A stretch of DNA of 64,000 nt from Patescibacteria group bacterium (GCA_040384725.1 JAZKIS010000004.1:1256-65255), one strand, 5' to 3'. Counted from the stretch's first letter, positions 9,615 to 53,838 are shown. Program-made: numbers and translations. Notes: generated from the letters alone by a model not told the origin.

Positions 9615-9627
9615 AAATGAAGCAAAT

Positions 9628-9972: not shown

Positions 9973-9990
9973 TTCTCGCTGCTCGTTCGC

Positions 9991-11319: not shown

Positions 11320-11390
11320 CGGGCCCACTAGGAATCGAACCTAGGACGTCGGTTTTGGAGACCGAAGTTATACCATTTAACTATGGACCC
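11320..11390 (-). tRNA. tRNA-Trp (anticodon CCA)
   Basis: Reverse complement gggtcca-ta-gtta-aatggta-taac-t-tcggt-cTCCAaa-accga-cgtc-ctagg-ttcgatt-cctag-tgggccc-g is a 71-nt cloverleaf. Confidence 0.85.
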
Positions 11391-11468
11391 GGTATTGCTC
11401 ACGATACCAGATACACGGGTAGGGGAAAAGAAGCGGGGATTAGAGCGCGCACGGGATACAATCACTCT

Positions 11469-12455
11469 ATGAAAAGGCTCTGGGCCCCGCTGCTCCTTCT
11501 GCTCGTATTTTGCGTGCCACTGGTTGCGAGCGCGCAATCGAACCTCCCGCTTTTTGATCCTGACTGGCAGCTCGTGCCCGATGCGCACAAGATAGATCCA
11601 GTGAACTGTCCTGAAGGATATCCGCTTGGATTCGGGGGTGTTTTGCAGCTCGTGCAGAACGGCATGAACGCGGCGATATCGTTCGGCGTTATTATCTTCG
11701 TTCTCGTTATCGCGGGGGCCGGCATCCTGTGGATACTTACGCCGACGAACCCCGAGAATCACTCGCAGGCAAAGAAGATCCTTACGAACGCCGTTATCGG
11801 CCTCCTGATCATCCTGTCGGCGTGGCTCATCGTTGACTTCGTCATGAAGCTTCTCTATAACCCGAACGCGAATAACATGGGTCCCTGGAATCAAATTCTG
11901 ACGGGAGGAGATCTCTGCATTAAGCCGATGGAGAATCTCCAGCCTCTCTTCAGCGGCAGCATCCTGGCTGTCCCGGGCGCGTCCAGCGCATCATATGATC
12001 CGCGGTATACGACGAGTGGTTCATGCTCGCCTGCGAGCGTCCAGCAGGCAGGGCAGAGCGTAACCATAACCGTGAAGGAGGCGCGATTCCTGGCGTGCAT
12101 CGCACGGCCTGAAAGCCGGTGCGGTGGCGACCTCACGAACTACAACTGGGGCAGGGGCTCGAGCGCGTACGGACCGTTCATGATCCTGCTCGATGGAAAT
12201 GCGCGGTATTTCGAGAACGAGGCATGCAGGGTGGCAGCGAACGTTTCAGGACGCCTCAACTGCCAGGACGGATTCAGGAACGGAAACCCCATCCCAGGAA
12301 GTGACATCGCGCGACGCTGCATGCAGGCTGCGTCGAACCTCGCATGCAGCACTGCCGCCGCTACCGCGCTCGTGCGACAGTCCGGAGCAACGCCATGGAC
12401 CGGGAACAACGACAGCAAGCCGGCGCATATGCGTTGCGCGCTGGAGCTCAGGTAG
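11469..12455 (+). CDS. VirB2/TrbC-like pilin module fused to lytic transglycosylase-like domain
   Basis: Signal peptide plus two TM helices (AISFGVIIFVLVIAGAGILWIL; AVIGLLIILSAWLIVDFVM); C-terminal IARPESRCGG...SAYGPFMIL resembles the SLT ES...GLMQI motifs. Paralog of ORF 13062-13979. Confidence 0.6.
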   Translation: MKRLWAPLLLLLVFCVPLVASAQSNLPLFDPDWQLVPDAHKIDPVNCPEGYPLGFGGVLQLVQNGMNAAISFGVIIFVLVIAGAGILWILTPTNPENHSQAKKILTNAVIGLLIILSAWLIVDFVMKLLYNPNANNMGPWNQILTGGDLCIKPMENLQPLFSGSILAVPGASSASYDPRYTTSGSCSPASVQQAGQSVTITVKEARFLACIARPESRCGGDLTNYNWGRGSSAYGPFMILLDGNARYFENEACRVAANVSGRLNCQDGFRNGNPIPGSDIARRCMQAASNLACSTAAATALVRQSGATPWTGNNDSKPAHMRCALELR

Positions 12456-13061: not shown

Positions 13062-13979
13062 ATGAGAGCGATATTCCCATTCGTCCTCGCGCTCATCCTG
13101 CTCCTGCCACTCTCTGCAGATGCGCAGTTCGGCCCCATCGTGCCCGAGGTGTGCCGCACCTGTGCGTGCGGGTTCGGCGGCGTACTCGCTATCGTGCAGA
13201 ACGTGGTGAATTTCATGATCAGCATCTCGATCATATTCGCGACCATCATCATGGTGTGGGCCGGCGGCTTATACATACTCTCTGCAGCCAATCCGGAGAG
13301 CCGCAGCACCGCGAACAAGATGCTTCTCAACGCGGTTATCGGTATTCTGATCGTGCTCTCCGCATGGCTCATCGTCGACTTCGTCATGAAGACGCTCTAC
13401 AACAACGGCAGCGAGTTCGGTCCCTGGAATTCGATCCTGCTCGGCGGTGTGGGGGATAGCTGCGTCGTTGCGAAGCCAACTTCACCCCTCTTTAGCGGCA
13501 ACATTATCGCTGTTCCTGGACAGGGCAGCGGAGCGGGCGTCGGGGGCGACGTTGTTACGAGCGCTTCCGCGAGCCATCAGGCAGGCGCTGCAAAGCTTTC
13601 AGCAGCAGGCATAAGCATTTCTTCGTCAGGCAACTGTGCGGACAAGAGGAACGCGCGATGTACGTCGCTTGACGGTATGAAAGAGAATACGGTTGACCAG
13701 GCCATTGCAGTGAAGCAAGCCTGCGGATGCAGTGTCGTGGTTACCGGCGGGACAGAGACCGGGCACGCAGGTGGACCTACGAGCCATAGCGCTGGCTACA
13801 AGATAGACCTCGGGGTAAACACACAGCTAGACGCGTATATCCGAAGCCTCACCCCGTCCGGCGCACGAGGCTCTGATTCTCGATATAAGGATCGCTGCGG
13901 AAACGAGTATGTACGTGAGACGAGCCCCAATCACTGGGACATAACCGTAAGCGCTGGCGTCTGCAGCCCGCCTAAGTAG
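13062..13979 (+). CDS. VirB2/TrbC-like pilin module fused to peptidase M15-like domain
   Basis: N-terminal ~170 aa paralogous to ORF 11469 (GFGGVL.IVQN...NAVIG.LI.LSAWLIVDFVMK.LYN...GPWN.IL.GG...LFSG.I.AVPG). C-terminal GGPTSHSAGYKIDL fits the M15 GG...SxHxxGxAxD motif, and NHWDI fits the EPWH-like motif. Confidence 0.55.
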   Translation: MRAIFPFVLALILLLPLSADAQFGPIVPEVCRTCACGFGGVLAIVQNVVNFMISISIIFATIIMVWAGGLYILSAANPESRSTANKMLLNAVIGILIVLSAWLIVDFVMKTLYNNGSEFGPWNSILLGGVGDSCVVAKPTSPLFSGNIIAVPGQGSGAGVGGDVVTSASASHQAGAAKLSAAGISISSSGNCADKRNARCTSLDGMKENTVDQAIAVKQACGCSVVVTGGTETGHAGGPTSHSAGYKIDLGVNTQLDAYIRSLTPSGARGSDSRYKDRCGNEYVRETSPNHWDITVSAGVCSPPK

Positions 13980-28694: not shown

Positions 28695-28740
28695 CTTGCA
28701 GCGGAGGTGTTTTGCAGGCAGGATTAACCGTGTGCGCATT

Positions 28741-28811
28741 GGGAGATCGTCTAATGGTAGGACAGCGGCCTTTGAAGCCGTGAATCTAGGTTCGATCCCT
28801 AGTCTCCCAGC
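28741..28811 (+). tRNA. tRNA-Gln (anticodon UUG)
   Basis: tgggaga-tc-gtct-aatggtag-ggac-a-gcggc-cTTTGaa-gccgt-gaat-ctagg-ttcgatc-cctag-tctccca-g, with U1-A72 and G73 as in bacterial tRNA-Gln. Confidence 0.85.
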
Positions 28812-28823
28812 TATACTGAATAT

Positions 28824-29195
28824 ATGAAGCCAACAAGCGAAAAAACTCTCAAGCGCGTATACGCTATGGTCTTTGCAAAAGTCTATCCGATGTATATCGC
28901 TAAGGCAGAAAAGAAGGGTCGCACCAAAGAAGAGGTTGATGAAGTCATCCGATGGTTAACCGGATACACGCAAAGCAAGCTGAAAGCACAGATTGAGAAG
29001 GAAGTGAACTTTGAGGTTTTCTTCAAGACGGCTCCGAAGCTCAACCCTTCACGTAAACTTATTACTGGCATGATCTGCGGCGTGCGGGTGGAGGATATTG
29101 AGGATCCGATCATGCGTGAGATGCGCTATCTGGACAAGCTTGTCGATGAGCTAGCGAAAGGAAGACCAATGGAGAAGATTAAACGACACGTATAA
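28824..29195 (+). CDS. DUF2200-like protein
   Basis: 123 aa; [29 protein letters not shown] resembles the DUF2200 family; TATACT 6 nt upstream. Confidence 0.55.
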
Positions 29196-29215
29196 TTCCC
29201 CGGTATACTAGATAT

Positions 29216-29428
29216 ATGAAAATATTTGATTTTTTTCGTACTAAAGAAGAAGAGAAACGGGATACCTCGGGAGACTCGACTGGGGGTTTAGTGACGACAA
29301 GCGCAACAATCGATTCAGAAGACCAACAAGGCGTAGACCAGTCAGCTGGTACGGGTTGGTTTGATTCGTTTATGGGAGGGGACGGTAGTGGCGATGGCGG
29401 AGGAGGAGATGGAGGTGGAGCAGGATAA
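29216..29428 (+). CDS. small hypothetical protein with Gly/Asp-rich C-terminus
   Basis: 70 aa; TATACT upstream; low-complexity GGDGSGDGGGGDGGGAG tail. Confidence 0.4.
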   Translation: MKIFDFFRTKEEEKRDTSGDSTGGLVTTSATIDSEDQQGVDQSAGTGWFDSFMGGDGSGDGGGGDGGGAG

Positions 29429-29496
29429 GTTCGTTACTTCGAGCACGGGCGTCCCAGACTGCCGGCAATTAATCTGCATATGGTATTCTCAAAACC

Positions 29497-30168
29497 ATGA
29501 ATCCAGACGAGTTGAGTCACCAGTACGATTCGATTGCTGATAGCTTTGAAAAAGCTATCGAGGAAGGCAATAAGGCGAGTAAGGATGCAATGCGGGCGCG
29601 CCTGCCAGATATGCATGGCAAGAGTGCGTTGGATATTGGCTGTGGAGAAGGAACTGATGCGGCTTTCTACTTAGAGAGCGGCGCTTCGCGCGTTGCCGGC
29701 CTCGACGCCTCAAAGGAGCTACTTGAGAAGGCGAAGCAGAAGCATCCAGGGATAGATTTTCAGTATGGGCTATTCGAGAAGATCCCATTTGGAGACGGGG
29801 AATTCGATTTCGTATTTTCCAAGTATGCTCTCATGACTTCAGCAGAGCTTGAACCTGCGTTCGTTGAAGTCCAGCGAGTGCTGAAGCCAGGCGGAGTATT
29901 CATGTTCGTCGTTACGCACCCCATTCGTCAGTTTTATGAGAAGAGAAAGGAAGGCAAGGATTACTTCAAGAAAGAGATCGTCGATTCAGTATGCTTCGAC
30001 GGGCTCATAACTTTTAGAGAGCCAACACATACACTCAAGGAGTATCTATCTGAGTACATGCTCTCAAACTTCACTCTTGAAGCCTATGAAGAATGTTTCG
30101 ATCCCGCAGCGGAGAAGATTGTCGATACCTACCCGGGATTCGTTCTGCTTAAGTGGCAGAAGCGATAA
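29497..30168 (+). CDS. class I SAM-dependent methyltransferase
   Basis: ALDIGCGEGTDAAFY motif I and the downstream acidic motif. Confidence 0.8.
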   Translation: MNPDELSHQYDSIADSFEKAIEEGNKASKDAMRARLPDMHGKSALDIGCGEGTDAAFYLESGASRVAGLDASKELLEKAKQKHPGIDFQYGLFEKIPFGDGEFDFVFSKYALMTSAELEPAFVEVQRVLKPGGVFMFVVTHPIRQFYEKRKEGKDYFKKEIVDSVCFDGLITFREPTHTLKEYLSEYMLSNFTLEAYEECFDPAAEKIVDTYPGFVLLKWQKR

Positions 30169-30169
30169 A

Positions 30170-30192
30170 TAGAAAGGTTCCAACATCGTCCC
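30170..30192 (+). repeat. 22-nt intergenic repeat copy 1 (TAGAAAGGTTCCAACATCGTCCC)
   Basis: One of three near-identical copies at gene junctions in this islet. Confidence 0.7.
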
Positions 30193-30213
30193 TGACTTCC
30201 GTCATCAAATATT

Positions 30214-30239
30214 AAGCCCCGCGATTGCTCGCGGGGCTT
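30214..30239. terminator. bidirectional terminator between convergent methyltransferase and GNAT genes
   Basis: aagccccgcga ttgc tcgcggggctt forms an 11-bp stem. Confidence 0.65.
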
Positions 30240-30243
30240 GCAG

Positions 30244-30699
30244 TCAGAACCGATAGCGGTAGACATTCGTTTCTCTCAATACAAAGCCGAGCTCCTTATA
30301 CAGTGCGTTGGCCTTGATCCTGTCAGGACTGCTCGTAAGGTTGCAGGCAGAGAGTCCGCGCTCCTGGGCAAGTTCGAGGATCTTGCGCATGAGATCCAAG
30401 CCAAAGCCTTGGCCTCGATACATCTCATCGACTACGACACTCTCGATAAAGCCGATGGTCTTGTTCAGTAGCGGAGCAAGGACCATTGTGGCAGTCCCGA
30501 CCAGCTTCCCGTCCTCGAATGCACCGAGAACGATAACGTTCGGGGATTGAAGAGAAATCTGTACTCGCTCGCTCTTCAAGGGCGCAGTTCCTGGCGAAAG
30601 TTGCGCGAAGAGTCGAGCAAGATCAGGCATTAGGTCAGCAGCCTGAGATGCCGTTATCTGCTTAATACGTTTTGGCATTACCAGCTCCCATGAGGACAT
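30244..30699 (-). CDS. GNAT family N-acetyltransferase
   Basis: RGQGFGLDLMRKILELAQERGLSAC is the acetyl-CoA binding motif A. Confidence 0.8.
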   Translation of the reverse strand: MSSWELVMPKRIKQITASQAADLMPDLARLFAQLSPGTAPLKSERVQISLQSPNVIVLGAFEDGKLVGTATMVLAPLLNKTIGFIESVVVDEMYRGQGFGLDLMRKILELAQERGLSACNLTSSPDRIKANALYKELGFVLRETNVYRYRF

Positions 30700-30739
30700 C
30701 TAGGGGTACGGCATCAGGGGCAACTTGTGGTGTCTAATA

Positions 30740-30762
30740 TAAGAAAGTTCCAACACCGTCCC
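30740..30762 (+). repeat. 22-nt intergenic repeat copy 2 (TAAGAAAGTTCCAACACCGTCCC)
   Basis: Lies in the divergent region between the GNAT and PNPOx-like genes. Confidence 0.7.
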
Positions 30763-30794
30763 AGACCGCCAATTCAGTTTGCTACACTTCGTAT

Positions 30795-31274
30795 ATGGAT
30801 AACGTGCAAGTCGCCAAGAATATAATTCGAGAAACTATATACGCGGTACTCGGCACTGCTTCCTCTGACGGAATGCCATGGATCTCGCCGGTATTTTTCG
30901 CATACGATGACTCATTCAACATATATTGGGTTTCGAACAAAGACTCCCTCCACTCTCAGCTGCTAAGAGAAAATCCAGAAGTAGCAATAACAATCTTTGA
31001 TTCAAGGGCTGTAGAAGGTGAGGGTGATGCTGTTTATATGCGCGCACGCGTAGAAGAGCTTGCAGAAAAAGAAGATATTGAAAACGGAGTTCGTGTCTTC
31101 AATGCTAGGGCCACCGGTGAAGACTTTAAGATAAAGGAAATCTCTGAAGTTATCGGTGAAGGCGTTTGGCGTATTTATAAAGCTACCTCTTATGAGACAA
31201 CGAAGCTCGGGAAGGGGCAGTTTATACATGGCCAGTATGTGGATATGCGTATACCTATCTCACTTGCGGGATAG
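30795..31274 (+). CDS. pyridoxamine 5'-phosphate oxidase-like FMN-binding protein
   Basis: TIYAVLGTASSDGMPWISPVFFAYDDSFNIYWVS is the split-barrel PNPOx-like pattern. Confidence 0.75.
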   Translation: MDNVQVAKNIIRETIYAVLGTASSDGMPWISPVFFAYDDSFNIYWVSNKDSLHSQLLRENPEVAITIFDSRAVEGEGDAVYMRARVEELAEKEDIENGVRVFNARATGEDFKIKEISEVIGEGVWRIYKATSYETTKLGKGQFIHGQYVDMRIPISLAG

Positions 31275-31293
31275 AAAGCTTCCAACATCGTTC
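31272..31293 (+). repeat. 22-nt intergenic repeat copy 3 (TAGAAAGCTTCCAACATCGTTC)
   Basis: Begins with the TAG stop codon of the PNPOx-like gene. Confidence 0.7.
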
Positions 31294-31315
31294 AGGATGC
31301 CAACAAAAATAGAAC

Positions 31316-31678
31316 CTATTGAAGGCTTACCAACGTAAGAACGGCCACTGTTATTGCACCAAATATCGCGAGCGTTTTTAAGAAGTAAGATACTGCTTCG
31401 ACTCGGCTACCCTCAAGAAGTTTAAGTACCGGTTGATAGAAAAATAGAAACGCCATGACCGCTCCAGAAAAGACAAACAGTGAAATAACACCTATCCCGT
31501 CAAGCAAGGTGTCCGGCGTATCGTGACGGAGCGATTCAATAAAATGCATAAACAGCACTACCAGGCCAATGTAGAGAATGGCAGCGAATGCGTTTAGAAA
31601 GGGATGCCACTTCATATGCTTGGTATAACACCGCATATGCATCTTTGGTTGCTTGTCCTCACAAGGACCAGGAGGCAA
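31316..31678 (-). CDS. small integral membrane protein
   Basis: 120 aa with three predicted TM helices. Confidence 0.55.
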   Translation of the reverse strand: MPPGPCEDKQPKMHMRCYTKHMKWHPFLNAFAAILYIGLVVLFMHFIESLRHDTPDTLLDGIGVISLFVFSGAVMAFLFFYQPVLKLLEGSRVEAVSYFLKTLAIFGAITVAVLTLVSLQ

Positions 31679-31697
31679 TAGGGTATAGTTTAAATAT

Positions 31698-32036
31698 ATG
31701 AAATTCTTTGTTACCTACCAAATGGCCCATACAGGCCTCGACGAGTGGATGAAATTGCCAGAAGACGAGCGCAAAGCTCATGAAGTGCAGATGCAGTCCG
31801 ACTGGAATGCGTGGATGGAAGCCCATAAGGCATCTATTACGGAAAGCGCAGGCGTCGGGAAGCCCAAGCGCATCACGGTCTCAGGAGTCGAAGACTCTCG
31901 TAACGACATAATGATGTATTCGTTCGTCGAGGCGGAGTCGCTCGAGGCTGCGGCAGAACTCTTCAAGGACCACCCGCATTTCGGCATCCCTGGCGGATGG
32001 ATCGAGGTTATGTCCGTAAACAAGGCTATTAGTTAG
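31698..32036 (+). CDS. hypothetical protein
   Basis: 112 aa; TATAGT upstream; no confident family assignment. Confidence 0.5.
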   Translation: MKFFVTYQMAHTGLDEWMKLPEDERKAHEVQMQSDWNAWMEAHKASITESAGVGKPKRITVSGVEDSRNDIMMYSFVEAESLEAAAELFKDHPHFGIPGGWIEVMSVNKAIS

Positions 32037-42520: not shown

Positions 42521-42673
42521 CTCCATGAACACCTCATCTAACGCTCATCACACATCTATTAGAGTGGCCTGATGCCTAGCTCTATGCGAATATTGGAAGA
42601 CCGCCGCCCCACCTCCTGTCGCATAGCCCTAAAAGCCCTTGCTAAGAGTGGTCCCGGCGGTACGTCATACTTT

Positions 42674-43177
42674 ATGGACCAGGAAGAAACGAAAGCCTAT
42701 TTCCTCCAGATATACGATACCTATGCGGACGATATCTACCGTTTCTGCTACCTCAAGGTTAGCAACCGGGAGCTCGCCCAGGATCTGTCTCAGGAGGTCT
42801 TCACCCGCTTCTGGCAGGCCCTGCGGGAGGGTACCGTCATGCGAAGCGAGCGAGCGCTCCTCTATACCATGGCGCGGAACCTTGTTATCGACTGGTACCG
42901 GAAGAAGAAGGAATCCTCGCTCGACGTACTGACCGAGCAAGGCCTCGAGTTCGGCGGAGACGGAGCAGACGATGTGACGCGCGATGCTGAGATGGGCGAG
43001 GCCCTACGGATGGTGAGCAAGCTTGATGTGGCATCAAGAGACGTGCTCATCCTCAGATTCGTCGACGGCCTCTCGCCGAAGGAGATAGCGCTTCTCTCGG
43101 GAGAGTCAGCGAATGCCGTCTCTGTCCGCCTGAACCGCGCCATGAAGAAGATGCGTACCCTTATGCATACCGATTGA
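42674..43177 (+). CDS. ECF-type sigma-70 family RNA polymerase sigma factor
   Basis: Region 2 (DDIYRFCYLKVSNRELAQDLSQEVFTRFW) and region 4 HTH (LSPKEIALLSGESANAVSVRLNRAMKKM). Start at MDQEET; the six-frame ORF starts earlier. Confidence 0.8.
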   Translation: MDQEETKAYFLQIYDTYADDIYRFCYLKVSNRELAQDLSQEVFTRFWQALREGTVMRSERALLYTMARNLVIDWYRKKKESSLDVLTEQGLEFGGDGADDVTRDAEMGEALRMVSKLDVASRDVLILRFVDGLSPKEIALLSGESANAVSVRLNRAMKKMRTLMHTD

Positions 43178-43191
43178 TCTAGAGAAGAACC

Positions 43192-44166
43192 ATGACCACA
43201 CGAAATCCTATTACCATACTCAAGTCGCTGAGGAACCTAACTCTCGGAAGCGACGTCAAGAAGCGCATGCGCGCTGATATTTCTGCATACGCTGATCTCC
43301 ACTCGCTCACGGATCTCGTGAAGCGCTTGCCGGTGCGTTCCCCGTTCTCATTCGCTTCGTTCATGGTACCTGCGCGCAGCCTCTACGCCGGCGCGCTTAC
43401 GCTCGTACTCATGGTTGCGGGAGGCACGCAGGCAAGCCTCGCTTCTGAAGGTTCGGTCCCAGGAGACATCCTGTACCCGCTCAAGGTAGCGGTTAGCGAG
43501 CCGCTCGCATTCGTGTTCACGCCGTCGACCGAAGGAAGGGCGAGCCTCGCTGCAGAATTCGCATCCCGCAGGGTAGACGAGGCGGCAGCGCTCTCGTCTG
43601 TAGGCAAGCTCGACGAGCAGACGGCTCAGGACTTGGCTACCCGATTTGATGCGCATGTCGACGTGCTGGCGAAAGAGACGGACACGCTTGAGGCGAAGGG
43701 CGAGATCGCTACGTCGCTTGCGGTGCGTACCGACCTCGAGCAGAAGCTCTCAGCACGCGTTGAGGAATTCGCTGTCGATGCGGTTGCCGAAGAGAACGTG
43801 CTCGTCGCAACCTCGATGGCCGTAGAGGAATCCACCGCAGACCGCTTCACCACGCGCGTCTTCGAGAAATCAAAGACGCTCGCAACGACTCGCGAACGGC
43901 TCGAGACAGCACTCGCGCTCGATGTCGAGGCAGAGCTCAAGGAGGGAGTGAACCTTGCTACTATCCGGTCAGGGGAGGCTGTGCAGGGAGAGAGCGCGTC
44001 CGCAGGAATCTTCTTTGCTAAGGTCGGGTCAGGTGAGGTCGACAATCTCGCGGCAACGACTACTGCCACGACGACCGCTTCAACGACCGACGAGAAGCTT
44101 CTTGAGAATAGCGAGCCTAGCGACTCAGCGGCATCACGTTTCTTCGCGCCATTCTTGAAGCGATAG
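43192..44166 (+). CDS. putative anti-sigma factor / membrane protein downstream of ECF sigma
   Basis: One TM helix after an ~80-aa cytoplasmic N-terminus; extracytoplasmic helical region; assignment rests on gene position. Confidence 0.45.
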   Translation: MTTRNPITILKSLRNLTLGSDVKKRMRADISAYADLHSLTDLVKRLPVRSPFSFASFMVPARSLYAGALTLVLMVAGGTQASLASEGSVPGDILYPLKVAVSEPLAFVFTPSTEGRASLAAEFASRRVDEAAALSSVGKLDEQTAQDLATRFDAHVDVLAKETDTLEAKGEIATSLAVRTDLEQKLSARVEEFAVDAVAEENVLVATSMAVEESTADRFTTRVFEKSKTLATTRERLETALALDVEAELKEGVNLATIRSGEAVQGESASAGIFFAKVGSGEVDNLAATTTATTTASTTDEKLLENSEPSDSAASRFFAPFLKR

Positions 44167-45850: not shown

Positions 45851-46738
45851 ATGAGCGTTCGGCTCATCGAAGGGTTGCCGCACCTGTATCGCGGAAAAGG
45901 AAAGGATCTGTACGACATTCCAGGTCGTCCCGATTCCATACTGCAGGTCTGCCGGAACACGCTCAGCACGCACAACGTCGTGCATGCCACGGAAGTCGAA
46001 GGCAAGGGCGCGCTCATTACGGCACTGACCCTGTTCATGCACTTCTCGGTACTCGACGGTATTCCCAACCACATCGAGGAATTCGGCCGAGATATCTACC
46101 TCGTACTGCCGGAAGGCGACTACGAGCCTGACCTGCATCATCGTGCATTGGTCGTGAAGCGTGCCCGGACGCCGGATACGGAGTTCATCTTCCGTTCGCA
46201 CCTTGCGGGCTCGCTCGCGCGGGCGCTGAAGGAAGAAGGGACCGATCCCTATAATCTGGGCCTCAGCCGGCACCTGCCGCTGATGTTCCGGTTTCCTCAG
46301 CCCCTCTTCACGCCGACGGAGAAGTCGAAGGACGACCGGCCGCTTCCGGCGAGCGTCGTGTGCGAGCGCTATCCCATCGAAACCAGTCTCGCGCTCAAGG
46401 CGTTCCGTCAGGCGCAGCAGTACCTGTATCGTCGCGGCCTCGCGCTTATCGACGCGAAGTTCGAACTGGTTGATGGCATGCTCATCGACGACTGGCTGAA
46501 TGGCGACTGTTCGCGCATCGCGAGGCTGTCCGATATCCACGAAGGCGAGGAGCCCCCGTTCCTCGACAAGGAGATCTTCCGACAGATTGCCATACGCAAC
46601 TGGAATGGCGGCAAGAAGGTTCCGCTCACTTTCACCGATCGTGAGATCAAGCAGGGGCTGGGCGGCTACCACGAAGCCTTCAGTCTCATCACGGGCATGA
46701 CCCTGCGGGAATTCCAGAAGTTCTATCTCGACGTCTGA
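45851..46738 (+). CDS. purC: phosphoribosylaminoimidazole-succinocarboxamide synthase (SAICAR synthetase)-like
   Basis: LYRGKGKDLYDI, GKGALITALTLFMHF...GIPNH, FRSHLAGSLARAL and LIDAKFEL blocks align with PurC. Confidence 0.65.
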   Translation: MSVRLIEGLPHLYRGKGKDLYDIPGRPDSILQVCRNTLSTHNVVHATEVEGKGALITALTLFMHFSVLDGIPNHIEEFGRDIYLVLPEGDYEPDLHHRALVVKRARTPDTEFIFRSHLAGSLARALKEEGTDPYNLGLSRHLPLMFRFPQPLFTPTEKSKDDRPLPASVVCERYPIETSLALKAFRQAQQYLYRRGLALIDAKFELVDGMLIDDWLNGDCSRIARLSDIHEGEEPPFLDKEIFRQIAIRNWNGGKKVPLTFTDREIKQGLGGYHEAFSLITGMTLREFQKFYLDV

Positions 46739-46836
46739 TTCAAAAGCAACGTTACGGCGCATCCTCACGGGTGCGCCGCTCTTTTATCCTCTTCGAGAAT
46801 CTCTGATGGAGGATCAATGCACTATACTTACCTGTA

Positions 46837-49572
46837 ATGGAGGGACCGATACTACCCATAACCTCGCCCGAGGACGAGCTCGCGTATCTTCGCGAGCAGA
46901 TCGTGCGCAAAGAAGCCGAGCTTGCGACCTACAAGCGCGACATGCCGCGCGAGGACATCGCGCATGAGCGTATCCTGCATCACCGCATGAGCGGCCCAGA
47001 AACGCTGCTCGCGTCAGAATTCAGGATGTCTGAGCGTGACGCGGCAAAGCATGCAGACATGCTCGCGCTGAATCTCGATCCGGAACAGAACGACGAGACG
47101 ATCGCAGAGCTCCGGAATGTCATGGAGGAGAAGGGTATCCACAACGTGTTCACGATCCTCGGAAAGCTGAACAATGCGCACCTGGAAGATGATTTCCATC
47201 GCTTCCTCGTGCAGTACCTCGTTGTTGGCATGCAACCCAAAGGACTCGCGGAGAACCAGCCGGAATGGAAGGCGCTCCGGATGACCCTGTACGAGATCGC
47301 GCTCCCTGAGGCCAATACTGAAGAGTCGCGCGGCAAATCCCTCAAGGAACTCATCTCGTCCATGGAGCAGTTCTATTCCGGCTTGCTCGCGGTTGAGCAC
47401 GCGGGACGCGGCGAGCCTGCCTACATGACGCTCGAGCTCGCGGTCCCGGTGGATGCGCCGCATCTGATGTTCTACGCCTCGGTACCAAACACGCGCCGGG
47501 ACCTCTTCGAGAACCAGCTCCTTGCTATCTTCCCGAATGCGCAGGTGAGCGTACAGTCGAACGACTACAACGTGTTCGTTGAGGACGGCGAATCGCTCGC
47601 GTCCGTCGCTGAGTTCAAGGATAAGGCGATGCTCCCCTTGAAGGACTATCAGGACTTCGATTACGATCCCCTTAACTCCCTTCTGAACGCGTTCGCGAAA
47701 GTAGCGCCCGAGAACGAAGGAGCAGCCCTCCAGATCGTGTTTAAGCCGGAAGGAAGTCATTACGTCGATCACTACCGACGCATCATTCACGCGCTTCGCC
47801 AAGGAGAGCACCGTTCGCGAGCATTCAACCTGCCCGAGACGTTCGCCGGGGATCTCGCGCGCGAGGCCGCAGGGCTCTTCTTTTCGAGCAAGAAGCAGTC
47901 GCAGACCGAACCGGTCGATGAGAAAGCGGTCGAGATGGTCGAGAAGAAGATCGGCGCGCCGATCGTCTCGACCAATATCAGGCTCACGGTTTCGTCACAG
48001 GCTCACGATCGCGCCCATCAGATACTCACCGAGCTCGAATCCGCGTTCAATCAGTTCGATAACACCACCGGAAACCGTATCAACTTCCGGAGACCGAACA
48101 AGGGCTCCTTGAAGCAGCTTCTCCGGGATTTCTCGTTCCGTTTGTATCGCGCTTCGACCAATCTCCCGCTCTCGCTTCGCGAGCTCACGACCCTCTACCA
48201 TTTTCCGCCGCAGGGCATAGAGTCCTCGCCGCAGCTTAAGCAATCGCGCGCAGCGAGCGCAGCCGCACCGATCGGCCTTCCGCGAGAGGGTCTCATGCTC
48301 GGTGTGAACGAGTTCCGCGGCACGAAGACCGAGGTCCGTCTCTCTGATGCGGATCGCTTGCGCCATCTCTATGTCATCGGACAGACGGGCGCGGGTAAGT
48401 CCGGTCTCTTGCGGACCCTGATCGACCAAGACATCAAGGAAGGGAAAGGCGTCTGCTTCATCGATCCTCACGGGAACGATATCCTCGACGTGCTGGCTAC
48501 CGTCCCCCCTGAGCGCTACGAGGACGTCATCTATTTCGATCCTGCCAATATCGATCGCCCGTTCGGACTCAACATGCTCGAGTACGACCCGAAGCGCCCG
48601 GAGCAGAAGACGTTCATCGTGAATGAGATGCTCGCCATCTTCCGACAGCTGTATGGCGACGTGCCGGAGTCCATGGGCCCGATGTTCGAGCAGTACTTTA
48701 GGAACGCGACGCAGCTCGTCATGGAAGACCCGGCATCGGGCTCAACCATGATGGATATCGGCCGGGTCATGTCGAACGCTGACTTCAGGAACCTGAAGCT
48801 GGCACGGAGCAATAACCCTATCGTGAATCAGTTTTGGTCTGAGATCGCGACGAAGGCTGAAGGCGAGGCGAGCCTCCAGAGCATCGTGCCGTACATCACG
48901 AACAAGTTCGATGAGTTCACCACGAGCGATTTCATGCGGCCGATCATCGGGCAGCAGGAAAGCTCCTTCAATTTCAGGGAAGTCATCGACAATAAGAAGA
49001 TCCTCCTGGTCAATCTCTCGAAAGGACGCCTCGGAGAGCGCAATGCGAATCTCCTCGGTCTTATCATCGTGGGCAAGCTCTTCATGGCGGCGCTCTCGCG
49101 AGCGGACGATCCGCGCGGGAACTTCCCGCCGTTCTACCTCTATATCGACGAGTTCCAGAACATCACCACCTCTTCGATCCCTGGCATTCTCTCCGAAGCC
49201 CGCAAATACAAGCTTTCCCTCACTATCGCGCACCAGTACCTCGCGCAGATCGACGAGAAGATCAGGGATGCGGTCTTCGGCAACGTCGGGTCTATGGCGG
49301 TCTTCCGTGTCGGACAGGAGGACGGAGAGTTCTTCGGGAAGCTCTTCGAGCCTACCTTCAAGGCGAGCGACTTTACGAACATCGAGAACCGGAATGCCTA
49401 TGTCCGCATGCTCGCGAACGGCGTGCCCCAGAAGCCGTTCAGCATGAAGACCTTGAATCTGTCTGAAGGAACCCTCGCTCAGGTGGATGACCTTCGTGAA
49501 TTGTCGTATCTCACGTACGGCAGGGACCGTGCTACTGTTGAAGCATCTATTAGAGCGCGCTATCTTTCTTAA
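46837..49572 (+). CDS. VirD4/TraG/TraD-family (type IV coupling protein-like) P-loop ATPase with ~450-aa N-terminal extension
   Basis: Walker A GQTGAGKSG; Walker B FYLYIDEFQNI; the TIAHQYLAQI...FGNVGSMAVFRVG block is typical of T4CP. No N-terminal TM helices. Confidence 0.6.
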   Translation: MEGPILPITSPEDELAYLREQIVRKEAELATYKRDMPREDIAHERILHHRMSGPETLLASEFRMSERDAAKHADMLALNLDPEQNDETIAELRNVMEEKGIHNVFTILGKLNNAHLEDDFHRFLVQYLVVGMQPKGLAENQPEWKALRMTLYEIALPEANTEESRGKSLKELISSMEQFYSGLLAVEHAGRGEPAYMTLELAVPVDAPHLMFYASVPNTRRDLFENQLLAIFPNAQVSVQSNDYNVFVEDGESLASVAEFKDKAMLPLKDYQDFDYDPLNSLLNAFAKVAPENEGAALQIVFKPEGSHYVDHYRRIIHALRQGEHRSRAFNLPETFAGDLAREAAGLFFSSKKQSQTEPVDEKAVEMVEKKIGAPIVSTNIRLTVSSQAHDRAHQILTELESAFNQFDNTTGNRINFRRPNKGSLKQLLRDFSFRLYRASTNLPLSLRELTTLYHFPPQGIESSPQLKQSRAASAAAPIGLPREGLMLGVNEFRGTKTEVRLSDADRLRHLYVIGQTGAGKSGLLRTLIDQDIKEGKGVCFIDPHGNDILDVLATVPPERYEDVIYFDPANIDRPFGLNMLEYDPKRPEQKTFIVNEMLAIFRQLYGDVPESMGPMFEQYFRNATQLVMEDPASGSTMMDIGRVMSNADFRNLKLARSNNPIVNQFWSEIATKAEGEASLQSIVPYITNKFDEFTTSDFMRPIIGQQESSFNFREVIDNKKILLVNLSKGRLGERNANLLGLIIVGKLFMAALSRADDPRGNFPPFYLYIDEFQNITTSSIPGILSEARKYKLSLTIAHQYLAQIDEKIRDAVFGNVGSMAVFRVGQEDGEFFGKLFEPTFKASDFTNIENRNAYVRMLANGVPQKPFSMKTLNLSEGTLAQVDDLRELSYLTYGRDRATVEASIRARYLS

Positions 49573-49582
49573 TACACAGCGT

Positions 49583-52120
49583 ATGGCAAAAAAACCACTC
49601 GAAGGACCGCCGTATACCGAAGACTCCGATGAGCAGGAAGTAGAGCGTGGCGGGCAGTATGCCGCGATACTGGCTCGCGCCGATCGCCATCTTGAGGATC
49701 CTGCAGACAGTACACCGATGGAACGCACCGAACTTGAAGACGGTGCCTCGGTGCGGGTGGCACCAGGAGCTAAGAAGCCCTCGGAGAAAGATCGTCGAAA
49801 GAAACGTACGCACGGTGCAAAAGCAGCTGCTCCGAAAGAAGAGCCGCGCTATGGCGTACCTGCCGTAACAGATGGGATAACGGAAACGAGGAAGGAACGG
49901 CATGATGCGCTGCGAGAGGCGCTCGCGAAAAGCCAAGAGCAGGATGATGCCGCGCCACAGACCGTAATCCCAATGCCAGATCAGAGCGCAGAGGAGCATC
50001 TGCGTGACGTGAGGAGCCGCCTTGATGCGAGGAAATCCCCTGGAGAGGAGATTCGCGTGCAGATTGAGGCGGTCGAGAAGCTCAAGTATGAGAAGCTTCA
50101 GGAATTTCATAAGAACCGGTCCGCACTTGGCCGTATGGCAGAGCAGTACACCGGTGAGATGCTGCCAAAGGAGATAAAGATGCTCATGACGACCTCGGAA
50201 GAATTGCGCGGCGCTTACCTCAAGGCAACCATCGGCTCGGTTGAGGAGCGCAGGGCTGCGCGCGGGCGAGACGAGAACAAGAATGAGGCCGTACGAGAGC
50301 GGTATCAGCGCCGCTACGAGTTCGAACGCCGCATGATCATCGAACCAGAGGAAAAGGCGATCCAGGCGCGCATGGAAGGTCTCGGCTCTCGAGAAAAGAA
50401 GGCGCTCGATACCCTCTATGAAAAATATAAAGAATTGCCGGCACCGGCTCGCATCGTGGCCATGTCCGGGCTCATGCTCGCAGGAGGCGCTGCGATCGGC
50501 GCGGGCCTCGGTACGGGTATCGGGCTAACGGCGCTCGCCATCGGCGGCATGTCTGCTGCAGCGCGTATTACCTCCTTGTACCAGAAGAATAAGATCGTAA
50601 AGTCAGGGCTCCAGCATGCGGCCGTTGTCACGGGCCTCGGAGGCCTTCTCGGATTAGCGTTTGAGCACGCGGTGCGAATGGGGCACAAGATGAGCGGCAC
50701 CGAACGGAAAGCCCAGGAGACGCTTGCGCGAGGCGTTAAGACCGATGGCGACAAGACACTCAACCTCGGCAATCTTAATATCTTTAGCAAGCTCCTTGCG
50801 GACCGGAAGAAAGCTAAGGCGGCAAAGGAAAGGATCGACCTTCAGGCACGATGGGCCCGATCCGTGGGATCGGTCGGCGTGGGTCTTGCGGCCGGGTTCG
50901 GTATGTCCGAAGTGTTCAACGGAAATGACGTAGAACAGACTTCAGGAAACGGAGATGTCGCGCCAGAGAATATAGGCGCTGGACCTAACACCGCTGAAAG
51001 CGCTGCGCCTGCGCATGATGCACCCCCATCTGCTGCTCCAGCAGCACCCGCTGAAGCTCCGAACGAGGCGCCTATAGAAGTAAAAGCTGAGCCGATCGTT
51101 GCCACTATCGACGCGGGCGAGGGCTTCAACAAGCTCTTCCTTGATCTTCGCGATTCAGTGGATACGAAGCTTCACGGCATGCAGGACGTATCTTCCTCGT
51201 CGCCGGTTATGGAGTACCTATCCAAGACTTCGCCAACCGAGCTTTCAGAACGAATCGGTGCATTCGATCCTGAAACAGGCGAGAGCATGATTATGCAGCC
51301 CGGAGACAAACTCTTCTTGGACGATAAGGGAGATCTCTGGTTCCAGAAGGAAGGAGGCGAAGCGAAGCTCCTCATGGAGAATGATGCCGCAGCACCCGGC
51401 GGGTTCAAGGTGCACGATCTCGCGGACATTAAGGTTCCTGAAGCTTCAATACCAGTCTCTACTCAGAGCCCAGAAGCAAGAGTAGAATCAAGTCCAGCAG
51501 TTGCAGCTACTGAAGCTCCTCTGGAATCTGTAGCAACTACAGAAACCCCATATGTCTCTGAAGGCAGTGCATCGGTAGAGCATGCTCCCGGTCCGATCGC
51601 TAGTGAACCAGTTATAGATCGTGTTCCCGAATCTAGCTCTCAAGATGCTGAAGGCTTAATTCCAAGAGCGAGCCTCGGCAGCATGCCTGTGAACGTGGAT
51701 GCTCAGGCTCCAGTAGGCACCCTTAAGACCCAAAGCTTGGAATCCTGGACAGAGGATGCCATCGAAGCCGAAACTCACTCATTCTCGAATATCTATGATG
51801 TTGAGATAAATCCTTCAGAGCCGGCGGGATACGAATGGAAGGTTCCGGGCTCGAATCTAACCTACACAGTTGCGTTTGGAGAAAATGCTGCTGCAACCGA
51901 GCGGTGGGCGCTTCGCGAGCTTGAGCTGCGTCCTGAAGCAAGCGTGTTGATAAATTACACCGATACCAACCCAACGACAGGCGCCATTGAAACGAATGTT
52001 GGAGCCTGGGTGACAGGTGAAGACGGGAAGCCAGAATTCGTGCGAGAGCTAGTGAATCCGCAGAATGGTCTTAGGCTCGGTGCGGCAAATCCACAAGACT
52101 TTATCCGCAAGCTTCCTTAA
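49583..52120 (+). CDS. large membrane protein with coiled-coil N-terminus and Ala/Pro/Glu-rich low-complexity region
   Basis: 845 aa with a Gly/Ala-rich TM hairpin (IVAMSGLMLAGGAAIGAGLGTGIGLTALAIGGMSAAARI), a further TM helix, and an APAHDAPPSAAPAAPAEAPNEAP tract. Confidence 0.55.
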   Translation: MAKKPLEGPPYTEDSDEQEVERGGQYAAILARADRHLEDPADSTPMERTELEDGASVRVAPGAKKPSEKDRRKKRTHGAKAAAPKEEPRYGVPAVTDGITETRKERHDALREALAKSQEQDDAAPQTVIPMPDQSAEEHLRDVRSRLDARKSPGEEIRVQIEAVEKLKYEKLQEFHKNRSALGRMAEQYTGEMLPKEIKMLMTTSEELRGAYLKATIGSVEERRAARGRDENKNEAVRERYQRRYEFERRMIIEPEEKAIQARMEGLGSREKKALDTLYEKYKELPAPARIVAMSGLMLAGGAAIGAGLGTGIGLTALAIGGMSAAARITSLYQKNKIVKSGLQHAAVVTGLGGLLGLAFEHAVRMGHKMSGTERKAQETLARGVKTDGDKTLNLGNLNIFSKLLADRKKAKAAKERIDLQARWARSVGSVGVGLAAGFGMSEVFNGNDVEQTSGNGDVAPENIGAGPNTAESAAPAHDAPPSAAPAAPAEAPNEAPIEVKAEPIVATIDAGEGFNKLFLDLRDSVDTKLHGMQDVSSSSPVMEYLSKTSPTELSERIGAFDPETGESMIMQPGDKLFLDDKGDLWFQKEGGEAKLLMENDAAAPGGFKVHDLADIKVPEASIPVSTQSPEARVESSPAVAATEAPLESVATTETPYVSEGSASVEHAPGPIASEPVIDRVPESSSQDAEGLIPRASLGSMPVNVDAQAPVGTLKTQSLESWTEDAIEAETHSFSNIYDVEINPSEPAGYEWKVPGSNLTYTVAFGENAAATERWALRELELRPEASVLINYTDTNPTTGAIETNVGAWVTGEDGKPEFVRELVNPQNGLRLGAANPQDFIRKLP

Positions 52121-52131
52121 GAGTACCCTGT

Positions 52132-52434
52132 ATGAATGATACAAATTTTAGTCGAGTGCTGAATGCGCTTCAAATCGGCGAACTTTCTCCCCAAGAGCAG
52201 GAGGCTCTACTGCTCGACCTAAATTCTCTAATCTTTCGCGGAACGATGGTACGTCTGATTGAGCGCATGGATGAGAAAACGAAAGACGATTTCATCCAGC
52301 TTGTTGAGAGTGCCGCGGACGAGAGTGCCTTAGAGGCTTTCCTCAAAGAGCGTATACCAGATACGGATGCTTCGGTTGCTGAAACAGTGCAGGAAATCAG
52401 TGATGATATACTTGCGGTTACCGGCACTAAATAA
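52132..52434 (+). CDS. small acidic hypothetical protein
   Basis: 100 aa ORF immediately after the large protein. Confidence 0.45.
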   Translation: MNDTNFSRVLNALQIGELSPQEQEALLLDLNSLIFRGTMVRLIERMDEKTKDDFIQLVESAADESALEAFLKERIPDTDASVAETVQEISDDILAVTGTK

Positions 52435-52443: not shown

Positions 52444-52962
52444 ATGAATGTCACTGGAACTGGAATCGCTGTAGCGCTCGCTGTCGTAGTGGCGCTTGGC
52501 TTCCTTGCTCTTGGAACTCCGATGCTCACCTCCCTTGGAGGACCTGCTATGGACCAGTCTATGGCCGTCGGAACTACTACAAATCAAACTGCTTCAACAA
52601 CATCTATGGATCTCTCTCTGGCTCCTGGCGAGCCGCTTCCAACCGAACTCATGATTAACGACATTGTTGTCGGCACGGGCGCGGAAGCGACCCCTGGCTC
52701 AACCGTTACGGTTAACTACACCGGTGCGCTTCCGGACGGAACCGTCTTCGACAGTTCCGTCGGACGCGGCCCCTTCACTTTCGGTCTCGGCGCCGGACAG
52801 GTTATCCGCGGATGGGATGAAGGAGTGGCTGGTATGAAGGTTGGTGGCAAGCGCCGTCTCGTTATCCCGGCTGATAAGGCGTATGGGAATCAGGCAGTAG
52901 GCGGCATCATTCCGGCGAATGCAACGCTTCTGTTTGAGGTAGAACTCTTGGGTGTTCAATAA
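52444..52962 (+). CDS. FKBP-type peptidyl-prolyl cis-trans isomerase, membrane-anchored/secreted
   Basis: [21 protein letters not shown]...[20 protein letters not shown] is the FKBP domain; N-terminal TM helix. Confidence 0.85.
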
Positions 52963-53034: not shown

Positions 53035-53838
53035 CTATCGGCGAGTGATGCCGTTCCGGATGGGATCGGTGATCGTCTCGTCGAGCGAGAGGCTCGGGAT
53101 GCTCGCCGGGTTGGCGAGCGCCGGGTACAGGCCCGCGCAGGTCGGGAAGGTCCGCTCGAGGAAGATGCGTTCGCTTCGTCCCCACAGCAGGTTCGCCCGG
53201 ATCGAGAGGCGGTTGAAGAGCACCGAAAGCATGTTCGCTTCGCGGCTCAGCTCCTGGGCGTATTGGTCGCCCCGGCGCCGCACCTCGTTCGAGCCTGCGC
53301 CCGTGACGATCATGATGCCATGCTCGAGCATCTGTTCCGGATTCCGGATGGCTTGCACCAGGCCGAGAAGGGCCTGGAGAAAGTTCGCGGCGCCGCCGAC
53401 GCGTCCCGACCGGCGGATGTGCTCGGACAGGTTGATATCGTAGCGCTGGAACAGGCTCAGGTACATGGGATCGAGTTGGACGATCAGGCCCATGATCTGG
53501 ACCAGCTCGTTGATGTCTTCACCCACGATGGTGCAGCCGTCCTCGGACGCGTCGGCGTATTCCTGGTAGAGCGCGATGCTCTCCGGGGTGTCGCCGTACG
53601 CAGCCTTCCAGTCGTCGAGCGAGGTCGTGCGAAGCACGCCCCGAACGTTGTAGGCCTGCAGCGGAAGCGGCTGGCCGACGCCGGGCAGAGGGCTCGACAT
53701 GTCGACGAGGATCTGCGGCGGCGGTGTCCGGGCTTGACGATCAGAGGATGAGCTCGGAACGACTTGGGCGACGGCGGAACCGGCGCCCATGAGGAGCGCG
53801 ATGGAGGCCACCGCACCCAGGATGTTGGTCTTGGTCAT
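53035..53838 (-). CDS. secreted hypothetical protein
   Basis: Signal peptide (ILGAVASIALLMGAGSAVA); 267 aa; no domain call. Confidence 0.5.
   Translation of the reverse strand: MTKTNILGAVASIALLMGAGSAVAQVVPSSSSDRQARTPPPQILVDMSSPLPGVGQPLPLQAYNVRGVLRTTSLDDWKAAYGDTPESIALYQEYADASEDGCTIVGEDINELVQIMGLIVQLDPMYLSLFQRYDINLSEHIRRSGRVGGAANFLQALLGLVQAIRNPEQMLEHGIMIVTGAGSNEVRRRGDQYAQELSREANMLSVLFNRLSIRANLLWGRSERIFLERTFPTCAGLYPALANPASIPSLSLDETITDPIRNGITRR

Follow-up and report, generated by a model that had tools for sequence, protein, structure and literature searches.

The window analysed here, a 64-kb stretch of DNA from a Patescibacteria group bacterium (GCA_040384725.1, JAZKIS010000004.1:1256-65255) whose lineage is Paceibacteria, carries a gene for an ATPase of 911 amino acids (aa), followed by genes for an 845-aa membrane protein and a 100-aa acidic protein. 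We found that this ATPase is a chromosomal, vertically inherited member of the type IV coupling protein (T4CP) superfamily (VirD4/TraG/TraD), belonging to the DUF8128 subfamily, and that the three genes recur as a module, in permuted order, in a distant Paceibacteria lineage. On balance, we lean towards the view that the module provides a coupling-type ATPase ring, which would be docked or regulated by the other two proteins and would feed a relaxase-less type IV secretion system (T4SS) encoded elsewhere. The family is already registered in databases and in one survey (PMC12102498) and has been characterised by nobody. What is new here is the dissection of its domains, an architecture common to coupling proteins of Firmicutes plasmids, the replacement of a transmembrane helix by a fused domain, the permuted partner module, and the probable link to an essential gene of the cultivated Southlakia.

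The DUF8128 ATPase and its domains

An earlier reading of this stretch, made from the sequence alone (the sequence-only reading), had described the three open reading frames (ORFs) and assigned VirD4/TraG-type motifs to the first of them. Both descriptions proved accurate. The ATPase and its parts are located as follows (residues refer to the 911-aa protein):

46837-49572, + strand: 911-aa DUF8128/coupling-protein-like ATPase, long form lacking transmembrane helices (ORF call; Pfam; identical to database protein P0001)
46837-47271, + strand: N-terminal helical extension, residues 1-145 (helices of the AlphaFold2 (AF2) model; hhalign; homologues starting at about residue 145)
47254-48282, + strand: DUF8128 domain, residues 140-482, alpha/beta (AF2 model; Foldseek)
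48274-49572, + strand: T4CP-type P-loop domain with an inserted all-alpha domain, residues 480-911 (Pfam, profile, Foldseek, tblastn)
48379-48402, + strand: Walker A, GQTGAGKS, residues 515-522
49147-49152, + strand: Walker B, D771/E772 in LYIDEF

Walker A and both D771 and E772 are invariant in 40 diverse homologues, and the AHQYLAQ...FGNVG block is also found in the protein. The C-terminal half is coupling-protein-like by Pfam, by a profile search of the PDB, by its fold (TrwB) and by tblastn. A hidden Markov model (HMM) search, proposed in the sequence-only reading, gave 23.9 bits for TraG-D_C (gathering cutoff 22), and in a relative (locus L058) both this model and TrwB_AAD_bind (35.8 bits, cutoff 20.5) were above threshold. 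A profile built from 40 homologues matched DotL (4.5e-6) and TrwB (5.3e-6) in the PDB better than it matched HerA-type helicases (0.0085-0.026), thus the assignment to T4CPs rather than to HerA or FtsK was upheld. The AF2 model of the whole ATPase (predicted local distance difference test, pLDDT, 86.6) was aligned by Foldseek with TrwB at a TM-score of 0.69 and a root-mean-square deviation of 4.3 Å; this superposition of a predicted structure on TrwB-deltaN70 extends over ~436 columns (426-437 residues of the target), which is nearly the entire soluble domain of TrwB. In the same model the all-alpha insert consists of six helices (residues 590-695) placed between strands 564-567 and 722-726. 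When plasmids were searched by tblastn, 405 records were returned, the best with 34% identity (E 2e-61), and the matched proteins are annotated as T4SS DNA-binding, TraM-recognition or DUF87 proteins. All NCBIfam matches are far below cutoff, the best being TraD and VirD4-like models, with CedD as a lesser one (CedB for a relative). The best single Pfam E-value belongs to DUF87, the HerA central domain, which covers only residues 499-546 around Walker A. A full-length match of the window ATPase to FtsK or HerA was not found (FtsK_SpoIIIE 15.4 bits at a cutoff of 24; NCBIfam HerA models E 0.04-0.08), nor did CagE_TrbE_VirB, AAA_10 or P-loop_TraG give a Pfam match in it.

The N-terminal half had been set aside in the sequence-only reading as some 450 aa of unknown fold. 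It resolves into a helical domain of ~145 aa and a ~340-aa domain, DUF8128, which seems to resemble the N-terminal domain (NTD) of VirB4 and is also present in coupling proteins of Firmicutes plasmids. The structure prediction suggested in that reading did yield a confident model of the DUF8128 domain (pLDDT 91.9, predicted TM-score 0.90), while the likeness it revealed is modest: the only PDB folds at E<1e-3 in Foldseek are 14 chains of R388 TrwK/VirB4 (E 3e-7 to 2e-4), with TM-scores of 0.36-0.45 and no target coordinates given. The next fold, chlorite dismutase, follows at E 1.5e-3 and a TM-score of 0.2, and the full-length model aligns with TrwK over ~900 columns. With moderate confidence, we regard residues 140-482 as a VirB4-NTD-like fold, as judged from the predicted model.

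Residues 86-138 of the extension align in hhalign (probability 96.7%, E 3.2e-10) with the C-terminal part of a ~140-aa protein, whose gene lies immediately upstream of short-form ATPases, and many DUF8128 homologues are ~800 aa long, with the alignment starting at about query residue 145. The extension is thus lineage-specific and reflects a gene fusion or fission. The N-terminal transmembrane helices usual for coupling proteins had been reported as missing, and indeed there is no segment of transmembrane-grade hydrophobicity in the 911-aa ATPase; the only mildly hydrophobic one, residues 735-757, is within the P-loop core. Short-form relatives (Moranbacteria-like, WWE3 and Saccharibacteria loci) have one transmembrane helix directly before the DUF8128 domain, and therefore the family core consists of a transmembrane helix, DUF8128, and a T4CP ATPase with the all-alpha insert. 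In the Paceibacteria lineage of the window, this helix has been replaced by the fused helical domain.

The database protein P0001, which has 100% identity and coverage to the 911-aa ORF and comes from a 66.5-kb contig of a Patescibacteria metagenome-assembled genome, carries PF26449.1 (DUF8128) and DUF87; the assignment to PF26449 is the precomputed annotation of this identical protein. Among database homologues, the best 120 have full-length identities of 69-100% and PF26449 is annotated in every one, and an exhaustive HMMER search gave 5,287 representatives of 50%-identity clusters at E<=1e-30. In a scan of one genome per species, at least 600 genomic matches were obtained, and the best 80 loci are all from Patescibacteria (Kaiser-, Nomura-, Zambryski-, Taylor-, Adler-, Moran-, Falkow-, Uhrbacteria and others). 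Members are also present in WWE3 (for instance P0219) and in Saccharibacteria. Since the ATPase, single-copy in the window by the family HMM, belongs to a very large Patescibacteria-wide family that is already a Pfam entry, it is not the orphan it had been taken for; unlinked T4CP homologues were moreover already included in the 2025 survey (PMC12102498). Some members are giants of 1,400-2,000 aa (P0180, P0183, P0188, P0196, P0199-P0201), in which the DUF8128-ATPase core is N-terminal and is followed by ~600-1,200 aa of extra C-terminal sequence.

A relative with a clear conjugative setting is found on the B. subtilis plasmid NZ_CP154917.1, where an 885-aa "DUF87 domain-containing protein" is encoded directly upstream of a Replic_Relax relaxase, after which come TcpC and a separate AAA_10 VirB4. 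The family profile aligns with both domains of the 885-aa protein (hhalign probability 100%, E 1.5e-50, 648 columns), and with the AAA_10 VirB4 of the same plasmid at a probability of 1.9%. Fragments in Priestia pFDU301A and Pontibacillus match as well, the Pontibacillus one near a pilin-like conjugal gene. Like the window ATPase, the 885-aa protein combines a DUF8128-type N-domain with the ATPase domain and has no strong transmembrane segment. Unlike the window ATPase, it stands within a complete conjugation module (relaxase, TcpC, AAA_10 VirB4); the identity is ~23-28%, and neither the N-terminal helical extension nor the partner proteins are present. The occurrence of the two-domain core beside a relaxase on Firmicutes plasmids argues that the patescibacterial family most likely derives from a monoderm conjugation coupling protein. 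This placement agrees with the derivation of the patescibacterial T4SS from monoderm conjugation machinery (PMC12102498).

For the ATPase domain, the closest match from outside the Candidate Phyla Radiation (CPR) is on the Sulfitobacter plasmid NZ_CP081110.1 (L090 7995-9182; 35% identity, hhalign E 1.3e-74). There the domain stands alone, 395 aa long and lacking the N-terminal region; its gene has a recombinase and transposases as neighbours, and the plasmid is non-mobilizable.

The 845-aa and DUF5663 proteins and their linkage to the ATPase

The two genes downstream of the ATPase gene contain the following features:

49583-52120, + strand: 845-aa fast-evolving membrane protein (ORF call; start as in deposited P0121)
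50447-50677, + strand: hydrophobic cluster, Gly/Ala-rich, residues 289-365 of the 845-aa protein (sequence)
50873-50938, + strand: third hydrophobic segment, residues 431-452 of the 845-aa protein (sequence)
~50990-51097, + strand: Ala/Pro/Glu tract, residues about 470-505 of the 845-aa protein (sequence)
52132-52434, + strand: 100-aa acidic helical DUF5663 protein (ORF call; Pfam)

The mechanical ORF of the second gene begins at 49487 (877 aa), and the start that gives 845 aa is the one that agrees with P0121. The Gly/Ala-rich hydrophobic stretch, the Ala/Pro/Glu tract and the small acidic protein that follows were all as previously described. The stretch comprises 37 uncharged residues (291-327), with weaker hydrophobic segments at 343-365 and 431-452; the protein also has a charged N-terminal region of ~288 aa, a K/R-rich loop and an acidic C-terminal region of 393 aa. 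In the hydrophobic cluster there are small-xxx-small motifs, typical of oligomerising helices. Pfam recognised no domain in the 845-aa protein nor in 10 homologues, a direct homology search with it gave 3 matches only, and homology of the big proteins between lineages is demonstrable only via profile-profile chains. The 100-aa protein has a net charge of -12 and scores 20.6 bits with PF18908 (DUF5663), below the gathering cutoff of 23.7 (E 6.6e-4); all 17 of its 17 aligned homologues match DUF5663 (best E 3.5e-7), and precomputed matches exist in relatives. When the DUF5663 profile was compared with PDB sequences, nothing significant was found. One of the 17 proteins gave a weak, non-significant match (E 0.0078) to IcmW of Pfam. 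As IcmW serves the coupling protein of Legionella as an adaptor, this weak match is suggestive of an adaptor function for DUF5663 proteins.

The sequence-only reading had grouped the three genes together. In close relatives the order of genes is sigma factor, DUF5667, holin-like, purC, ATPase, big protein, DUF5663, FKBP, TGT and UvrB; such synteny by itself proves little on linkage. By using an HMM of the small protein, we located DUF5663 beside the ATPase in 19 loci. Except in L061, its gene comes right after that of a large protein (580-1,260 aa) whose centre holds a Gly-rich hydrophobic cluster; over the related loci, this arrangement accounts for 19 of 20 cases. The order in the window is ATPase (with the fused 140-aa domain), big protein, DUF5663, while in L058, L063, L068, L059 and L060 it is big protein, DUF5663, 140-aa protein, ATPase. 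This permuted order belongs to a Moranbacteria-like lineage, whose ATPase is about 44% identical to that of the window. The big proteins were aligned across lineages by hhalign with probabilities of 99.8% (E 2.5e-30), 96.9% (E 1.5e-10), 93.6% and 91%. The survival of the module through rearrangement in a distant Paceibacteria lineage speaks for a common function of its genes, and the grouping is borne out.

The three genes differ in their rate of evolution. Only the nonsynonymous rate (dN) was used, because the synonymous rate (dS) is saturated (>1), which makes dN/dS unreliable. In comparison with two relatives, dN of the ATPase is 0.05, like that of TGT and UvrB, and the ATPase appears to be under strong purifying selection. 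The values for the big protein (0.23-0.37) and DUF5663 (0.15-0.26) are above those of every other neighbour, at 3-7 times the rate of the ATPase. In the big protein, the hydrophobic cluster and its juxtamembrane flanks are best conserved (78-88% identity), in comparison with 33-51% at the N-terminus; variation is greatest in the N-terminal 120 aa and in the Ala/Pro/Glu linker.

Two features at the borders of the cluster bear on its transcription:

46755-46778, + strand: terminator-like hairpin between the purC and ATPase genes (10-bp stem with 8 G-C pairs, followed by a T-run)
52444-52962, + strand: 172-aa FKBP-type prolyl isomerase with a hydrophobic N-terminus (ORF call; Pfam), 9 nucleotides (nt) 3' of the DUF5663 gene

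As the strong hairpin precedes the ATPase gene, the latter is likely the start of a separate transcription unit. Inside the gene cluster there is no hairpin of comparable strength, and the gaps from the ATPase gene through the 845-aa and DUF5663 genes to the FKBP gene are 10, 11 and 9 nt. The FKBP gene is probably co-transcribed with the DUF5663 gene and holds its position just 3' of it in about 10 loci; its membership in the module is uncertain, since the synteny of the wider locus includes it as well. The hydrophobic N-terminus of its product makes membrane anchoring or export probable. This isomerase could assist the folding of the exported part of the 845-aa protein, or its place could be mere synteny.

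Possible role in type IV secretion

According to Pfam scans of the main ORFs, no VirB4, VirB6, VirB8-11 or relaxase is encoded in the window, in agreement with the sequence-only reading, which had proposed a minimal machine for DNA uptake or host interaction. The genomes of relatives carry VirB4/VirB3/VirB2 elsewhere, so that a minimal machine standing by itself is not the interpretation to start from. In the survey of Quinonero-Coronel et al. 2025 (PMC12102498), VirB4 was found in 2,417 of 3,035 Patescibacteria genomes, with a figure of 109 for relaxases, and there were 5,713 VirD4-type T4CP homologues in 2,918 genomes, 148 of them near virB4, which led to the suggestion that the T4CPs were perhaps exapted. 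Close relatives of the window organism have VirB4-positive genomes in its Tables S1 and S3; the source genome, seen over 64 kb only, has none there by Pfam. In the Nomurabacteria genome GW2011_GWD2_36_14 (GCA_000991405.1), VirB3, VirB4 and VirB2 are genes 683-688 and T4CP matches lie elsewhere (PMC12102498); by a positional estimate, gene 596 (t4cp1) may be the DUF8128 gene. The genomes of relatives, with their VirB4 systems elsewhere, generally encode no relaxase.

Two products of the window, which had been called pilin-like hydrolases, are VirB2-type T4SS_pilin proteins (PF18895), encoded at 11217-12455 (+, 412 aa, E 2.4e-9) and 13062-13979 (+, 305 aa, E 5.9e-8). They are 33 kb from the ATPase gene, with no VirB4 nearby, and fit a T4SS context, not DNA uptake. 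Arrays of such pilins are known from patescibacterial T4SS loci. The supposed connection with dprA found no support, as this gene is 24 kb away across housekeeping genes. Competence of Southlakia is ComEC-dependent and not essential (PMC12857230).

The ultra-small, host-attached Patescibacteria account for a large part of bacterial diversity, and theirs is the T4SS first shown to be essential for its own carrier. Wang et al. 2023 (PMC10633639) reported that the T4SS of Southlakia is essential and stated that it has no recognisable coupling and relaxase proteins. Their Table S1 contains SEML1_0142, a 1,019-aa "TraM recognition domain-containing protein" with a P-loop region at 381-800, which is scored ES at all three Tn-seq time points and is listed as core and Patescibacteria-enriched. 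The gene just upstream, SEML1_0141 (139 aa), had zero insertions and was scored essential, and the TrwB-type SEML1_0293 was non-essential; SEML1_0142 and SEML1_0141 are undiscussed in the text of that paper (PMC10633639). In literature searches we found no paper on DUF8128 or SEML1_0142. The Saccharibacteria DUF8128 member P0407 (L096 8001-10985; E 5e-161 against the family; N-terminal transmembrane helix) lies in the order YifB(-), two small genes, ATPase, gyrB, gyrA, which is the layout of SEML1_0138-0146. By this synteny, together with length and domain layout, SEML1_0142 is very probably the DUF8128 orthologue: like the window family, it has ~310 aa before the P-loop region. Unlike the window ATPase, this probable Saccharibacteria orthologue has a transmembrane helix and a long low-complexity C-terminal tail, and the small genes upstream of it have no detectable relation to those of Paceibacteria. 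The t4cp homologue of the Southlakia strain that the 2025 survey described as dispensable (PMC12102498) is probably SEML1_0293, a different gene. Both this remark and the coupling-protein statement of Wang et al. need revisiting. The DUF8128 family is a concrete, testable candidate for the missing motor and in Paceibacteria comes with two candidate partners or cargo.

In the mechanism towards which we lean, an ATP-driven ring of the ATPase would work at the cytoplasmic face of the membrane, held and/or regulated by the Gly-zipper-like membrane protein and the acidic DUF5663 protein, the products of the co-transcribed genes. This complex would recruit substrates and feed them to the chromosomal relaxase-less T4SS encoded elsewhere, which itself would act in host-cell interaction and not in plasmid transfer. 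A number of observations weigh against this mechanism. The VirB4 system is shown for relatives only, as a VirB4 of the source genome is not within the window; no T4SS gene adjoins the ATPase, and only 148 of the 5,713 patescibacterial T4CP homologues are near virB4 (PMC12102498). Since T4CP homologues are found in more genomes than VirB4 (2,918 and 2,417, respectively), a T4SS-independent role is possible. The identity of SEML1_0142 comes from synteny, length and domain layout, not from its own sequence. The similarity to the VirB4 NTD comes from a predicted model with the low TM-scores and unreported target coordinates given above, and sequence profiles miss it, as with the Bacillus AAA_10 VirB4 in hhalign. 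Nomurabacteria-like long-form loci have secY, adk ... ndk beside the ATPase instead of the big protein and DUF5663, and homology to these two is undetectable in WWE3 and Saccharibacteria loci, among the small genes upstream and the large genes downstream; the two proteins are thus not universal partners. They also accompany the short forms which bear a transmembrane helix, so that the big protein is not simply a replacement anchor, and its docking role is weakened, considering that the helix-bearing forms keep it and the helix-less Nomurabacteria forms do not have it nearby.

In a different explanation, the ATPase, the Gly-zipper protein and a DUF5663 adaptor constitute a T4SS-independent translocase, that is, a minimal envelope-spanning motor of their own, which would import or export DNA, protein or another macromolecule across the single membrane with no need of VirB4, VirB6 and VirB8. 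Such a device would account for an ATPase that is almost everywhere unlinked to virB4 and whose homologues exceed VirB4 in number of genomes, for a conserved membrane partner in two deep Paceibacteria lineages with small-xxx-small motifs in its hydrophobic cluster, and for a probable orthologue that is essential while the canonical TrwB-type SEML1_0293 is dispensable. There are also weak Walker-region matches to CedB and CedD, archaeal DNA-import ATPases, but these are far below cutoff and limited to the P-loop. Moreover, the membrane partner is undetectable beside the ATPase in Nomurabacteria-like, WWE3 and Saccharibacteria loci, the closest non-CPR relative, that of the Bacillus plasmid, is within a full conjugative T4SS gene set, and VirB4-less genomes are explicable by incompleteness of metagenome-assembled genomes; we consider a translocase of this kind rather unlikely. 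The two fast-evolving proteins could alternatively be the substrate side of the system, with the 845-aa protein as a secreted or translocated membrane-inserting effector or adhesin and DUF5663 as its secretion chaperone. Their dN, several times that of the ATPase, would be in line with this, and so would the mere 3 database homologues of the big protein in a direct search, the classic chaperone-effector layout of a ~100-aa, acidic, helical protein encoded nearly always directly 3' of the big one, and the non-significant IcmW match of one DUF5663 member. However, internal transmembrane segments are unusual for T4SS cargo, and the best-conserved part of the big protein, its hydrophobic cluster with flanks, fits a resident membrane protein, which makes the cargo explanation unlikely in our opinion.

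It is quite improbable that the ATPase is a second, divergent VirB4-type motor, for example one for VirB2-like pili, with the helix-bearing forms resembling a VirB3-VirB4 fusion. The models of the full-length protein and of the N-domain do match TrwK/VirB4 best, the short forms have one transmembrane helix ahead of the N-domain, and there are two T4SS_pilin proteins in the window; on the other hand, VirB4 signatures are missing from Pfam results for the window ATPase, its P-loop domain matches T4CP families by sequence, and the Bacillus plasmid homologue adjoins a relaxase and coexists with a separate AAA_10 VirB4, to which the family profile has hardly any similarity. Least credible by far are two further readings, namely that the locus is what is left of a decaying integrated conjugative element, or that the ATPase is a translocase of the HerA/FtsK type for DNA repair or segregation. 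DUF87 as the best single E-value and HerA 4d2i among the fold matches would speak for the latter, but DUF87 is confined to residues 499-546, HerA matches are weaker than T4CP ones, and a bona fide FtsK is separately encoded a few genes away in WWE3 loci. The genes of the window are mostly housekeeping (IF2, ClpB, ParB, RelA/SpoT, TopA, DprA, SerRS, DnaX, TGT and UvrABC by Pfam in the main ORFs) in conserved synteny, no NurA, integrase or relaxase was found among them, GC content is even across the ATPase locus, and the ATPase is apparently under strong purifying selection. The HerA/FtsK and mobile-element-remnant explanations are thus largely refuted, and the sequence-only reading was correct in not seeing here an ordinary conjugation remnant.

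A bolder version of the coupling-type motor would be that the DUF8128 ATPase is the missing essential coupling motor of Patescibacteria and, with its fast-evolving, lineage-specific membrane partners, makes up a translocation device that works without VirB4 or only loosely with it. We regard this as improbable. If true, it would offer a route by which epibionts with reduced genomes exchange macromolecules with their hosts, and its VirB4-like N-domain would give the ATPase the place of a living intermediate that links the ATPase lineages of VirB4 and VirD4.

Genomic surroundings and comparison with known systems

Several other features of the window and of related loci were recorded. The purC gene (SAICAR synthase) at 45851-46738 (+; Pfam E 2.2e-27) has no BLAST similarity to the purC found in the same position in the relatives L094 and L095, in which the flanking genes are 92-99% identical to those of the window; it looks as if purC was replaced in place by a different purC type. 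Upstream, at 42572-44166 (+), an extracytoplasmic function (ECF)-type sigma factor gene is followed by that of a DUF5667 protein, a possible anti-sigma partner, and this pair is kept upstream of the ATPase region in several relatives. The gene at 53035-53838 (-), whose position is kept in relatives, codes for 267 aa with a signal-like N-terminus and without a Pfam match, and a promoter-like site (53938-53910, TTGACA-17-TATAAT, 12/12 consensus) lies upstream of it. Directly after tRNA-Gln (28740-28811), the GC content drops to 0.48-0.51 at 28740-32000, compared to ~0.58 elsewhere; this part, whose genes include a methyltransferase and a PNPOx-like protein, with no integrase among the ORFs scanned, is possibly a genomic island of small size. 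GC content is also lower (0.50-0.52) at 7000-10000, where the minus-strand ORFs 7762-8586, 8724-9614 and 10237-11217 have no Pfam match. In WWE3-like loci (L087 2951-5245, L088 818-3088), a canonical FtsK with four transmembrane helices and alpha, SpoIIIE and gamma domains sits four to five genes upstream of the DUF8128 ATPase, with HTH_25/RodZ-like and YtxH genes between them.

Compared with known systems, the window ATPase is closest to the T4CPs. It has in common with TrwB (R388), VirD4, TraD/TraG, DotL and Cag-beta the P-loop domain with its all-alpha insert, as well as RH-x-Walker A, DPxGD, the Walker B DE and the TraG-D_C block. It differs from them by the ~340-aa DUF8128 domain between the anchor position and the ATPase, by the absence of transmembrane helices and of a relaxase or adjacent T4SS, and by being chromosomal, phylum-wide and probably essential instead of plasmid-borne. 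VirB4 (TrwK of R388; PDB 7o42, 8rtd) has, like the window ATPase, an alpha/beta N-domain followed by an ATPase of the FtsK/HerA superfamily; in the window ATPase, however, VirB4 sequence signatures are missing, the C-domain is nearer to T4CPs, and VirB3, VirB6 and VirB8 are unlinked. The apparent VirB4-type N-domain in a coupling protein, which Firmicutes plasmid coupling proteins also have, bears on the divergence of the two T4SS ATPase lineages.

Coupling proteins with accessory subunits are known from Legionella (DotL-DotM-DotN-IcmS/W-LvgA), from H. pylori (Cag-beta/CagZ) and from pIP501 (TraJ/TraI), and TraJ of pIP501 is a coupling protein without transmembrane helices that is brought to the membrane by its partner TraI. 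The 845-aa and DUF5663 proteins have no detectable sequence relationship to the accessory proteins of DotL, Cag-beta or TraJ, and the likeness is architectural only. By analogy with these complexes, the window module may be seen as a coupling ATPase that has two associates, one in the membrane and one small, acidic and helical.

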